From an uncultured delta proteobacterium (GTDB taxonomy: Bacteria > Desulfobacterota > Binatia > UBA9968), in assembly GCA_963840855.1 (NCBI GenBank), contig CAWJBB010000010.1:1-64000 (forward strand): DNA of 64,000 nt. The letters run 5' to 3'. Made by a program: the position numbers and the translations under genes. The notes below the pieces were generated by a model, which was given only the letters and a program-made list of their open reading frames with translations, did no database searches and had not been told where the DNA came from. Below are positions 50,881 through 54,383 of the stretch, piece after piece (position 1 is the first letter of the stretch; every line of letters starts with the position of its first letter).

Positions 50881-51017
50881 GTTCCTTTATCCGGTCGCGC
50901 AGGGCTGGAATATCCGCAACCCTGGTGCTAGACTCCGCCCGTGTTTATCTGCGGCAAGATTGCAGCTTCGGCGACTTTCAGACTCCCGCGCTAGTTCCCT
51001 TCACTGGGGAAAAGGTT

Positions 51018-52406
51018 ATGCAATATCTCGCTATCTGCGACGACGATCTCCTGTTTAACTTCCTGCGCAATGGCACCGCCGAACAGGCCGACCTGTTGTT
51101 CGTCGTCCAGGACAGCGCCGCGGCAAAGAAAATCAAACGTGCCGGGAGAAAAGCTCGCGATGGCGATCTCCTCAAAGAAGAAACGTACAAAAAACTCAAA
51201 TTGCGCCATGTGGATCAAGCAATTGTTTTTCTCAGGGACGTCGAACGGCAAAAGGGCGTCTGTGAGTTATTGCGGGCCCTGGACAAAAACATTCCGATAC
51301 TCGCCTTGACGACAGACAGCGCCGGGCACTCCAGCGATCCGCTGGTTCGTAGAATTCCTCTCCACGATATCTTCGAGGAGTTTTGCAGCACCGCGCTGCT
51401 CGACACGATTAATCGAAAAAAAGTCGAACGAATTCGCTCGCTCTTCCAGGATAAAGAAAAAATTCATATTCTACTGCAGCATGATCCCGACCCCGACGCC
51501 ATCGGCAGCGCGCTGGCGCTTAGGGAACTGCTCGGTAGAAACCGAGCGACCACCCCAATCGTCACCTTCGGCGAGGTTACCCGGCCCGAGAACCTCGCGA
51601 TGATTCACTATCTCGACGTGCAAATCGACCAGATTGAGCCCGATGACCTGCACAAGAACGGCGCAGGCCTGGCTATGGTGGACGTGTCGCCGCCTTATTT
51701 CAGCCAACCGCTGGGGGAAATCGATCTGGTTGTGGACCATCATCCCAAACGAACAGCATTCAAGGCGCACTTCACCGATGTTCGAACCCCTTACGGCGCT
51801 ACCTCCACGATTTTCACCGAGTACCTGCGCGCCATCGGCATGGAGCCTTCGCAAAGATTGGCCACCGCGCTTCTCTACGGGATCAAAGTCGATACGTTGT
51901 TCCTCGAACGCGGCAGCATCCTCGCCGATCTCAGCGCGTTTTCTTACCTCTATCCGCTCGCCAATAAAGCCTTGATCGCGCGCATCGAGAGGCCGGCGTT
52001 GCCGCGCGAAGATCTGGAAGCCCTGGGTCGGGCGCTCAGCCGCTTGCAACTGGATAACGGGGTCGCCGTCATTCACATGGGCGAAGTCAGGCGCGAGGAC
52101 GTTATTCCGCAGATGGCGGAATTTTGCCTGCAGATCGAAGGGGTCGATTGGGGCATTGTGTCGGGGTTGGTCAAGGACCGCGTAGTCATTTCCGTGCGCA
52201 ACGTCGGCCACGTGAAAAGCGCCGGCGACATTATGAAAAGACTCTATGACGACATCGGCAGCGCCGGCGGCCATCGCATGATGGCCAAGGCAGTGGTGCC
52301 GCTGGAACGCTTCAGGAAAAAATTCGGCGAGGTGAGCGAGAAGTCCATCCGCGACGCCATGCTGCCGCTGATCGTCGAACGCGATCAGCAGGCTCAAAAT
52401 GAATGA
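51018..52406 (+). CDS. DHH/DHHA1 phosphoesterase with degenerate TrkA-N-like N-terminal domain
   Basis: HDPDPDAIGS, VDV, VDHH, GATST, GIKVDT, SVR, GGH motifs. Confidence 0.88.
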   Translation: MQYLAICDDDLLFNFLRNGTAEQADLLFVVQDSAAAKKIKRAGRKARDGDLLKEETYKKLKLRHVDQAIVFLRDVERQKGVCELLRALDKNIPILALTTDSAGHSSDPLVRRIPLHDIFEEFCSTALLDTINRKKVERIRSLFQDKEKIHILLQHDPDPDAIGSALALRELLGRNRATTPIVTFGEVTRPENLAMIHYLDVQIDQIEPDDLHKNGAGLAMVDVSPPYFSQPLGEIDLVVDHHPKRTAFKAHFTDVRTPYGATSTIFTEYLRAIGMEPSQRLATALLYGIKVDTLFLERGSILADLSAFSYLYPLANKALIARIERPALPREDLEALGRALSRLQLDNGVAVIHMGEVRREDVIPQMAEFCLQIEGVDWGIVSGLVKDRVVISVRNVGHVKSAGDIMKRLYDDIGSAGGHRMMAKAVVPLERFRKKFGEVSEKSIRDAMLPLIVERDQQAQNE

Positions 52407-52827
52407 GGATCGCGGCACTTTTCGCGAATTCGAGCACACCGCCGACCTGGGTATCGAAAGCACCGCCGCTGATTTGCCGCGGCTGTTTGCCGCCGCGGGC
52501 GAAGGTCTCTTCTCGCTGATCGCTGACCCGGAAAATATCGACCCACGCGACCAGGTCACCGTCTCGGCGGTTGGCGCTGGCCCCGAAGAGCTGCTCCACG
52601 CATGGCTGCGGGAATTGTTGAGCCAATTCAACCTTGACGGGTTCGTCGGCAAGACCTGTGTTATCGAGCGCTTGACGGATGCGCGGGTCGACGGCATCGT
52701 GCACGGCGAGACTTTGGATCTGTCACGGCACCGCTTTCGCACCGAAATCAAGGGCGTGACCTACCATGACTTCAAGGTCTGGCAAGAAAACGGCGCCTGG
52801 CATGCGCGGGTGATTTTTGATGTCTAA
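52399..52827 (+). CDS. Archease (RtcB activator)
   Basis: [13 protein letters not shown] and C-terminal FDV signatures. Confidence 0.95.
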
Positions 52828-52906: not shown

Positions 52907-52922
52907 AACGCTCCGACTGCGC

Positions 52923-54383
52923 GTGATTGAGATGCCTGGAGAAGAAATTAAACTTGAGCGCATTGAGGAATTTCTCTGGGAGATTCCTAAGCAGGGTGGA
53001 ATGAGAGTGCCGGGGCGTATCTACGCCACGGAAAAGCTCATGTCCGGTTTAAAATCGGACAATAGTTTACGGCAAGTAATGAACGTCGCCCATCTGCCGG
53101 GTATCGTCGGATATTCTCTCGCTATGCCCGATATTCATTGGGGCTATGGTTTTCCCATCGGCGGTGTGGCAGCGCTGAACATCGACGGCGGTGTGATTTC
53201 CCCCGGCGGCGTGGGCTACGATATTAATTGAGGGGTGCGCCTGGTGAAGACCAGTTTGGTCTTCGAAGATGTAAAGGACCGGCTAGGCCGCATCGTCGAT
53301 ACGATTTTTTCGCTTATTCCCTCCGGCGTCGGCTCCGAAGGCGCGATCCCGAAACTTTCCAAGCAAGAAGAAAAGCGGCTTTTGCGCGACGGCGCAGGCT
53401 GGGCGGTGAACGCAGGCTACGGGCGCGACGAAGACCTCTCCTACATGGAAGAGGGTGGACGGTTGGCGGCGGCGGACGCCGATCTCGTCAGCGAGCGCGC
53501 TCTGGAACGCGGCCTTAAGCAGGTCGGGACTCTCGGATCGGGCAATCATTTTCTTGAGATCGGCCGCGTTGAAGAAATATATCTGCCCCAAACGGCGGAC
53601 GCGCTGGGCCTGTTCGCGGGCGAGATCGTCGTGTTGATCCACACCGGTTCGCGGGGCTTGGGTTACCAGGTTTGCGAGGACTCGCTCAAGATCATGAGCA
53701 AAGCGATGGCCAATTACCGCATCGAGCTGCCCGACAGGCAACTTGCCTGTGCGCCGATTCGATCACCGGAAGGGCAAGATTATCTCGCGTCGATGGCCGC
53801 GGCCGCGAATTATGCCTGGGCCAATCGCCAGGTCATCATGAGCCAAGCCGAGAAGGCATTCATGCAAGCGCTAGGCATCGGACCGAAGGAGCTAGGCTTC
53901 TCTCTCATCTACGATGTTTGCCACAACATCGCGAAGATCGAGGAACATGTTGTCGATGGCAAGAAGCAGCTGCTTTGCGTGCATCGCAAAGGCGCAACGC
54001 GCGCCTTCGCTCCGGGCCACCCGCAAATCCCCGCGGCATATCAAGACATCGGCCAGCCGGTGCTCATACCCGGCGATATGGGGCGCTATTCGTATCTGCT
54101 CGTCGGCGCTGATGCCGCCATGGAAAAAACCTTTGGCAGCACCTGTCACGGCGCCGGCAGAATGATGAGCCGCGCGCAATCGAAGAAGCAGAGCCAGGGC
54201 CTCAACATCGACCAGGAGATGGCGCGACGCGGAGTCATCGCCCGTTATCAAGGGCGCGGCACCATGGCCGAGGAGATGCCCCACGCCTACAAAGACGTCG
54301 CCGACGTCGTCGAGACCATGGACCTCGCCGGCATTTCGAAACGGGTAGCGCGCTTTCGGCCGGTCGGCGTCGTCAAAGGCTGA
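52923..54383 (+). CDS. rtcB: RNA ligase RtcB with an in-frame TGA at the metal-binding Cys; candidate selenoprotein
   Basis: The two track ORFs share one frame and are separated only by TGA 53229-53231 in GVGYDIN*GVRL. MPDIH, GSGNHF, HTGSRG, HN, HRKGA and HGAGR are intact. Confidence 0.93.
53245..53265 (+). promoter_or_regulatory. SECIS-like hairpin downstream of the rtcB UGA
   Basis: GAAGACCA-GTT-TGGTCTTC: perfect 8-bp stem starting after a 14-nt spacer from the TGA, with GU in the apical loop. Confidence 0.6.

Follow-up and report, generated by a model that had tools for sequence, protein, structure and literature searches.

Does a UGA codon that cuts the reading frame of an RNA ligase gene, exactly where the enzyme is expected to carry its metal-bridging cysteine, stop translation or specify selenocysteine (Sec)? 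The question is raised by the rtcB gene of an uncultured delta proteobacterium (lineage Desulfobacterota; Binatia; UBA9968), found in a 64,000-nucleotide stretch of DNA (GenBank assembly GCA_963840855.1, contig CAWJBB010000010.1, positions 1 to 64,000), hereafter the window. Both tRNA splicing and RNA repair rely on RtcB as their universal 3'-5' RNA ligase. A first-pass annotation of the window had proposed that the UGA is decoded as Sec, and this reading is supported by codon alternation among homologs, a conserved and covarying hairpin, the pattern of selection, and the presence of selA and selD in the genome. A family of Sec-containing RtcB proteins very probably exists, with the gene in the window as one of its members.

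The rtcB frame is interrupted by a single UGA

With the UGA read as Sec, positions 52923-54383 translate into a single frame of 486 residues closed by a second TGA (Table 1). Without read-through, the same segment yields two open reading frames in the same frame, of 102 codons (52923-53231) and 382 codons (53235-54383). Translation thereby bore out the initial description of a gene broken solely by the in-frame TGA at 53229-53231, with both halves in one frame. The read-through protein matches the RtcB family over its full length (Pfam PF01139, 3.6e-170, 567 bits, profile 1-426 of 426), and its residues 9-486 align with residues 3-481 of Pyrococcus horikoshii RtcB (chain 4dwr_B, 2.4e-173). Residue 103, which is Sec or a stop but not Cys, falls on Cys98 of the P. 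horikoshii enzyme, while D100, H209, H240, H334 and H409 fall on Asp95, His203, His234, His329 and His404, as read off the printed alignment. The motifs MPDIH, GSGNHF, HTGSRG, CHN and CHGAGR are all intact, so that both the translation and the alignment agree with the earlier statement that the remaining catalytic motifs are preserved. The predicted product is an archaeal-type RtcB, a 3'-phosphate/5'-OH RNA ligase, and the gene is the only RtcB match at E <= 1e-30 in its own genome. Because most full-length RtcB homologs are 483 residues long, ATG 52932 appears to be a likelier start than GTG 52923; it would give a protein of 483 residues with Sec as residue 100.

Table 1 Coordinates in the window of the rtcB features, the adjoining genes and the DNA contigs that span the TGA
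Feature	Positions	Strand	Remarks
rtcB read through the internal UGA	52923..54383	+	486 codons plus stop, from GTG 52923
In-frame UGA, proposed Sec codon	53229..53231	+	Residue 103 from GTG 52923; aligned with P. horikoshii Cys98
Spacer between UGA and hairpin	53232..53245	+	14 nt; same spacing in 46/46 TGA forms
SECIS-like hairpin	53246..53264	+	8-bp stem GAAGACCA/TGGTCTTC, apical loop GTT, codons V-K-T-S-L-V-F
True rtcB stop codon, also TGA	54381..54383	+	Read-through translation
Archease gene	52399..52827	+	Pfam PF01951 Archease, 5.1e-37, profile 1-136 of 136
DHH/DHHA1 phosphoesterase-family gene	50925..52406	+	Pfam DHH 6.8e-08, DHHA1 1.3e-05; open reading frame coordinates
X1 record 2	52919-53407		Logan DNA contig spanning the TGA
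X5 record 13	52990-53268		Logan DNA contig spanning the TGA; run record: soil metagenome
X6 record 21	53081-53281		Logan DNA contig spanning the TGA; run record: soil metagenome

TGA alternates with cysteine codons at the same position in relatives

We examined this codon in homologs at three levels of relatedness. Among 41 related genomes searched, 26 had an RtcB match. The 19 close orthologs (75-97% identity, window included) carry TGA in eight cases, TGC in eight and TGT in three; two of the eight TGA orthologs, L024 and L025, belong to the genomes G015 and G009, which are unpublished, and the count becomes 6/17 when these two are set aside. A distant paralog group (49-52% identity) has Cys codons in the eight loci that matched the codon pattern, the paralogs L040, L041 and L046 giving no match to it. 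In a wider set of genome contigs, comprising 80 loci with 55-78% identity, the motif was recognized in 78 (2 TGA, 56 TGC and 20 TGT); two loci were unmatched, and an additional match in L075 was discarded as spurious. The TGA forms at this level include L051, titled as a Candidatus Eisenbacteria metagenome-assembled genome, which has the same hairpin as the window, and L107, a Candidatus Marinacidobacterales chromosome (OZ245365.1), which has a different one.

A phylum sample of 401 genomes contained 261 with an ortholog at E <= 1e-150. At least 37 orthologs, that of our own genome included, carry one TGA among the 150 matches listed, with 113 further matches beyond these. The sequences of the 36 other TGA forms were fetched, and the TGA occupies precisely this codon in every one of them. 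In total, 133 sequences were compared, namely 46 TGA forms and 87 forms with TGC or TGT at the same codon; they are kin rather than independent samples, and the 36 phylum forms were chosen for having TGA, which biases the proportions. The alternation of TGA with TGC or TGT foreseen in the first-pass annotation was therefore found, at precisely this position, in the close orthologs, the wider contigs and the phylum sample.

In a FastTree phylogeny of the 133 sequences, built with the Sec/Cys column masked and rooted at the midpoint, the Sec forms fall into two well-supported clades on opposite sides of the root. The clade of the window (support 100) comprises 20 sequences, including 9 Sec forms, and the second (support 99) comprises 48, including 37 Sec forms. 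The tree requires a minimum of 11 Sec/Cys changes, six of which are forced by starred branches.

This alternation bears on the possibility that RtcB is made in two pieces, with translation stopping at the UGA and restarting at GTG 53235 or GTG 53244. Gene callers do predict a 379-residue C-terminal protein starting at MKTSLVF; three database proteins (P0117-P0119, 379 residues, 99-100% identical) begin with these residues right after the TGA, and rtcB is cut at the same place in other assemblies too. However, neither piece holds the bridging ligand, without which the enzyme is dead according to the accessible text of PMC9745838, and TGA alternates with Cys codons specifically, with no other sense codons. 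A two-piece enzyme is accordingly hard to credit.

A hairpin downstream of the UGA is conserved and covaries in the TGA forms

The 14-nt spacer followed by a perfect hairpin with GU in its loop, as first described, is present at 53232-53264. The hairpin consists of a 5' arm GAAGACCA (53246-53253), the loop GTT (53254-53256) and a 3' arm TGGTCTTC (53257-53264); counted from the U of the UGA, it occupies positions 18-36, with G26 and U27 in the loop. The segment 53220-53300 folds at -29 kcal/mol, compared with -20.6 +/- 3.1 for shuffled sequences (z = -2.69), and 2 of 200 shuffles equal it. Taken alone, the hairpin of the window is thus weak evidence, being mildly unusual, and it is the comparative data that carry weight.

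Codons 108-114, which encode the hairpin, are the most nucleotide-conserved of 480 windows in the nine Sec forms of the window's clade (0.058 differences per site, for a gene mean of 0.257). The same seven-codon segment ranks 323 of 480 in 11 Cys forms, with 0.297 differences per site. The sole stem changes among the Sec forms of this clade keep the pairing: an A-U pair became G-U at the top, and a G-C pair became G-U at the base.

From the UGA onward, the alignment of the 46 Sec forms is free of gaps, and both hairpin types that they contain lie at positions 18-36. The second type, found in the 36 phylum forms, is typically GCGCUCA-GGUC-UGAG-c-CGC. G26 is invariant in 46/46 Sec forms and is followed by U27 in 30/46, while G26 occurs in 15/87 Cys forms. 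Pair 19-35 is C-G in 36 Sec forms and A-U in 9, and pair 20-34 is G-C in 36 and A-U in 9, each being unpaired in one form. Pair 18-36 is G-C in 43 forms, U-A in 2 and G-U in 1, and the two sequences with U-A do not form a sister pair in the tree. Compensatory stem changes are thus seen at pairs 18-36, 19-35 and 20-34, which bears out the covariation that the first reading of the locus had called for. Pairing reaches 77% and 87% of cells in the proposed registers and 21-66% in slid registers. The observed covariation score was reached by 0 of 500 shuffles; related sequences can beat shuffles without any structure, and the slid-register control and the contrast between Sec and Cys forms are the stronger arguments.

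The same contrast appears in the predicted stability of positions 16-39. In every one of the 46 Sec forms, the folding energy is -6.1 kcal/mol or lower (median -9.1), whereas 17 of the 87 Cys forms reach -5 kcal/mol (median -2.5), the strongest of these being near kin of Sec forms. Four Cys-codon sequences that are close kin of Sec forms (L022 from G001, L028 from G006, L114 and L118) have a strong hairpin of -9 to -12 kcal/mol, and they look like recent Sec-to-Cys conversions with a relic selenocysteine insertion sequence (SECIS) element.

As a separate observation, the 3' arm TGGTCTTC followed by AA (53257-53267) resembles the anticodon arm of the tRNA-Sec of the same-genus genome G002 (L144:213-307). 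The 5' arm of the rtcB hairpin is hence complementary to the tRNA-Sec anticodon arm of relatives, a likeness that is probably due to chance.

The hairpin also helps to assess whether the UGA might be read through without selenium, either by a near-cognate tRNA inserting Cys or Trp or by Cys delivered through SelB. In favor of this idea, the nearest relative, G001, works with Cys (TGC). Against it, a hairpin with an invariant G26 is kept at a fixed distance in all 46 TGA forms and has decayed in most Cys forms, and it therefore has the signature of SelB-dependent recoding. In addition, ARAGORN found no tRNA with a UCA anticodon in the assembly, which speaks to the insertion of Cys by a UGA-reading tRNA, a caveat raised at the outset. 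Trp could not ligate metals, and the Cys98Ala enzyme is dead (accessible text of PMC9745838). Read-through without selenium is, in our view, very unlikely. A global reassignment of UGA was likewise rejected, as TGA is the commonest stop in this genome (it closes 1481 of 3720 long open frames) and no tRNA with a UCA anticodon was found.

The TGA recurs in other runs and the gene is conserved on both sides of it

Codon 53229-53231 is covered by Logan contigs from three DNA runs belonging to three studies (Table 1), and no letters other than TGA were seen. The TGA is to this extent confirmed, although by assembled contigs rather than raw reads, and X1 is possibly the source sample. The X1 contig has seven listed differences from the window, all of them synonymous and six of them downstream of the TGA. 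Across all four runs, the variant letters in rtcB number 30, of which 18 are synonymous and 12 are not, and 20 lie at third codon positions.

Sec forms compared with one another give ratios of nonsynonymous to synonymous substitution rates (dN/dS) of 0.03-0.2 for the part upstream of the TGA and for the part downstream alike; most of the dS values exceed 1.4 or are saturated. Because of these low values on both sides at such a divergence, the 3' half of rtcB is not decaying and is under purifying selection; the relaxed selection that would have spoken for a broken gene was not seen.

These results leave little room for a pseudogene or a sequencing error, in which the change from TGC to TGA would be a meaningless nonsense mutation. 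Frameshift-type breaks do occur elsewhere in the assembly, and the closest relative has TGC. Nevertheless, the TGA is present in contigs from the three runs, 45 further genomes or loci with otherwise intact frames share it at this codon, and the dN/dS values hold downstream of it. We regard this explanation as extremely improbable.

Selenocysteine machinery and other putative selenoprotein genes

The genome's own assembly is 94% complete and has 93 contigs. It contains selA (C1:40771-41868, 530 bits) and selD (C1:37592-38518, minus strand, 383 bits). In the latter, the known Sec/Cys site is occupied by an in-frame TGA (KAAG*AAKLGP, where the asterisk marks the TGA), and about 26 nt after it comes a hairpin whose A-GUU-U apical triloop is shared with that of rtcB (CGUGCAA-GUU-UUGCACG). 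A formate dehydrogenase gene of the fdnG type also has a TGA (C40, position 300964, plus strand; L187), in the context ENQARI*HSSSVPGLG. The hairpin that follows after 12 nt, GTCCCC-GGTCT-GGGGAC, is a canonical-looking SECIS in the same genome. Of the genes selA, selB, selC and selD, which the first-pass annotation had named as markers of Sec decoding, selA and selD are thus present, while the searches of this 94%-complete assembly detected no selC and selB carries a one-base insertion, as described below.

In the related genomes, SelA is present in 39/41 and tRNA-Sec in 30/41. Six of the seven relatives with a TGA-rtcB have tRNA-Sec, and the seventh, G017, is 86% complete. Genome G012, which is 100% complete, has neither selA nor tRNA-Sec, and its rtcB has TGC and a decayed hairpin; it is an exception consistent with the Sec reading. 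In the phylum sample, SelA was found in 370/401 genomes and in 35/36 of the other genomes with a TGA-rtcB, with G399 (90% complete) not among the matches.

In the gap between selA and selB (L131:10575-10691, that is, C1:40574-40690), we observed a palindrome of about 115 nt, both strands of which weakly match a plant miRNA precursor model (28.8 and 28.3 bits).

Several points, together with the sampling bias mentioned above, weigh against the Sec reading. The co-occurrence of SelA with TGA-rtcB is uninformative and does not discriminate, because nearly every genome has SelA at both the order and the phylum level. The nearest relative, G001, of the same genus and 97% identical, has TGC with an identical hairpin, and the hairpin can therefore persist without UGA. 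An Rfam scan of 53150-53350 found no SECIS family; the only hit, to the model of an unrelated ribozyme (13.8 bits, E = 2.3), was at chance level, and the hairpin is assigned to no Rfam family. In the metatranscriptome run X15, two contigs (53066-53239 and 53228-53469) reach the TGA without bridging it by 31 letters. These RNA contigs speak neither for nor against expression, as DNA carry-over is possible, and they provide no proof of transcription or read-through. At the protein level, Sec in RtcB is a prediction from the sequences. Finally, an engineered P. horikoshii RtcB with Sec at position 98 (U98), made with the UTu system, cleaved itself spontaneously according to the accessible text of PMC4150793, and Sec at the Cys98 site is therefore not automatically tolerated.

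The decoding machinery of this strain raises two further points on the same side. The selB gene adjoins selA (C1:38613-40500, minus strand; locus L131:9881-10041) and, compared with G001 and G002, two genomes of the same genus, contains an additional C that divides it between two frames. Either the extra base was introduced by the assembly, or Sec decoding is truly inactivated in this strain. In addition, tRNA-Sec was not found in the assembly by any of the searches used. ARAGORN at default thresholds returned 39 tRNAs, none of them for Sec, and at 80% thresholds it returned 6389 calls, too noisy to be of use. Scoring 150 of 901 candidates with the Rfam model RF01852 gave a best score of 43 bits, below the 47-bit threshold, for a tRNA-Ser. 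A regular expression for the anticodon arm and T-loop gave two unconvincing matches in the genome, and blastn with the tRNA-Sec loci of five relatives matched flanking genes alone. Neither the syntenic stretch C1:58400-59800 nor an Rfam scan of the sel operon region (L131) revealed a tRNA-Sec.

It could thus be that the family consists of selenoproteins but that the copy in this strain is not decoded: the selB frameshift would be real, UGA 53229 would terminate translation, and no active RtcB would be made. The split selB and the missing tRNA-Sec are what this explanation has in its favor. However, the frames around the TGAs of selD, the fdnG-like gene and rtcB are all intact, and near-identical TGA-bearing rtcB contigs exist in the three DNA runs, the listed differences of the X1 contig that spans the TGA being synonymous only. 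A second formate dehydrogenase alpha homolog (C89:1606-3673, minus strand; L184 and L190) is also split over two frames, which match model positions 3-499 and 507-672, a further hint of indel-type breaks in the assembly; together with the frameshift-type breaks in the window, it fits an error-prone assembly. We therefore consider the loss of decoding in this strain unlikely, if less so than the other alternatives discussed here.

Proposed mechanism and significance

According to the Sec reading, UGA 53229-53231 would be recoded via the bacterial pathway, with the hairpin at 53246-53264, 14 nt past the UGA, serving as the SECIS element. Its apical G26-U27 would be bound by the SelB-GTP-Sec-tRNASec complex, and Sec would be delivered once the UGA is at the ribosomal A site, giving a full-length RtcB of about 483-486 residues. 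Sec insertion, the binding of SelB to G26-U27 and the benefit of Sec are steps that we infer from sequence comparison. In the product, a selenolate would take the place of the Cys98-equivalent thiolate that bridges two Mn2+ ions, M1 being held with two His and M2 with Asp and His. In P. horikoshii RtcB, Cys98 bridges Mn1 and Mn2, and the Cys98Ala substitution abolishes all ligation steps, as reported in the accessible text of PMC9745838.

Why a ligase that performs no redox chemistry would use Sec may be explained by the vulnerability of its cysteine. The single active-site cysteine is a known weak point of RtcB: Cys98 was seen oxidized to sulfonic acid in one RtcB crystal (PMC9745838), and human RTCB needs PYROXD1, which protects its active-site Cys122 from oxidative inactivation (PMC12263435; PMC10630183), to judge from the accessible portions of these papers. 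The reason that we prefer is that Cys is readily over-oxidized and the enzyme then dies, while an oxidized selenol would be easier to return to its reduced state. With Sec, the ligase would better withstand oxidants, and its metal preference may also change. If this is true, the bacterial enzyme may represent a single-atom counterpart of the PYROXD1 protection found in animals, and its acceptance of metals may shift as well. Two facts point in the opposite direction: the engineered U98 enzyme cleaved itself, as noted above, and the softer selenolate is no obvious improvement as a ligand of Mn2+, a hard ion.

We tentatively extend these ideas to a broader proposal: selenium would bridge a binuclear Mn2+ center in a large, unrecognized family of RNA ligases without redox chemistry, and this family would have arisen, or been retained, in two or more RtcB clades because its selenolate protects the enzyme from irreversible over-oxidation. 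As a whole, this proposal is possible but doubtful.

The existence of Sec forms would matter in several respects. They would add a non-redox nucleic-acid enzyme to a list of selenoproteins dominated by oxidoreductases, and their SECIS would occur with two versions of the stem at a single, fixed position. The natural alternation of Sec and Cys between close relatives offers a ready-made experiment on the role of the ligand atom in metal binding and in oxidation resistance. For genome annotation, Sec-RtcB genes are called as truncated proteins of about 380 residues. The first-pass annotation had described a Se-ligated RNA repair enzyme as unusual. This holds for a non-redox RNA ligase and for a Sec that would bridge two Mn2+ ions; Sec as a metal ligand, on the other hand, is not unprecedented, as it is known already from formate dehydrogenase and [NiFeSe] hydrogenase.

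Genomic context of rtcB

An archease gene adjoins rtcB and is itself preceded by a DHH/DHHA1 phosphoesterase-family gene (Table 1). The 3' end of the latter overlaps the start of the archease gene by 8 nt, and the two genes are for this reason probably in the same operon. The arrangement DHH-archease-rtcB suggests an RNA-repair operon. The DHH/DHHA1 gene also has a weak TrkA_N match.

Comparison with known systems

No natural Sec-RtcB was found in open-access full text; supplementary lists, which were not covered, may hold an entry. A May 2026 review of 119 prokaryotic selenoprotein families and subfamilies (PMC13188914), which calls its table of these 'the most comprehensive inventory', does not contain 'RtcB', 'ligase' or 'PF01139' in the accessible main text. 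Likewise, neither 'RtcB' nor 'ligase' occurs in the accessible main texts of deep-Sep (PMC12013277) and BSepDB (PMC13326102), the supplementary family list of BSepDB lying outside this coverage, and 'ligase' is absent from that of the Haft and Gwadz preprint (bioRxiv 10.1101/2022.07.06.499078). Conversely, the accessible text of a 2023 RtcB review (PMC10630183) has no word beginning with 'selen', and that of PMC1586002 names selenocysteine in its reference list alone. Among the four NCBIfam families matched, there is no Sec-specific RtcB model. The novelty lies in the combination of a known enzyme with a known recoding system, which is unreported in the literature covered, and Sec-RtcB is probably an unrecognized and widespread selenoprotein family.

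The closest known enzyme is P. horikoshii RtcB (PDB 4dwr, 1uc2 and 7lfq), with which the protein of the window shares full-length homology, the other metal ligands and the guanylylated His404. The archease gene next to rtcB adds a likeness to RtcB-archease systems, archease being an activator of RTCB (accessible text of 10.1101/2023.03.30.534986). The two enzymes differ in the bridging ligand, which is encoded by UGA rather than UGC or UGU in the window, and in the intein, which the rtcB of the window lacks. In P. horikoshii RtcB, the intein splice junction is at Cys98 (accessible text of PMC4150793). The NCBIfam model of intein-containing RtcB breaks at 53226-53231 of the window (protein 102-486 to profile 578-961), so that one codon is the intein insertion point in archaea and the putative Sec codon in bacteria.

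As for the recoding signals, rtcB resembles selenoprotein genes of the E. coli fdhF type in that the UGA is aligned to the Cys of homologs and in that the coding sequence itself contains a stem-loop with an apical G-U shortly 3' of the UGA. The apical G-U of rtcB is at positions 26-27 from the U of the UGA, unlike that of E. coli fdhF, which is reportedly G23-U24. In common with known SelB/SECIS selenoprotein genes, rtcB has selA, selD and further TGA-containing selenoprotein genes in its own genome. It differs from them in that its protein product catalyzes nucleotidyl transfer without redox chemistry and in that no Rfam SECIS model matches.

The engineered U98 enzyme has Sec at the very active-site position where the natural forms are predicted to carry it. 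However, U98 is man-made via UAG and EF-Tu and is self-cleaving at a nearby peptide bond (accessible text of PMC4150793), whereas the predicted natural Sec forms are conserved over long evolutionary distances, which implies a stable and useful protein. PYROXD1, finally, answers the same weakness that Sec may answer here, namely the oxidative inactivation of the active-site cysteine. It does so as a separate metazoan flavoprotein, whereas in the bacterial RtcB the ligand atom itself would be changed, and the relation between the two would be one of functional analogy rather than homology.

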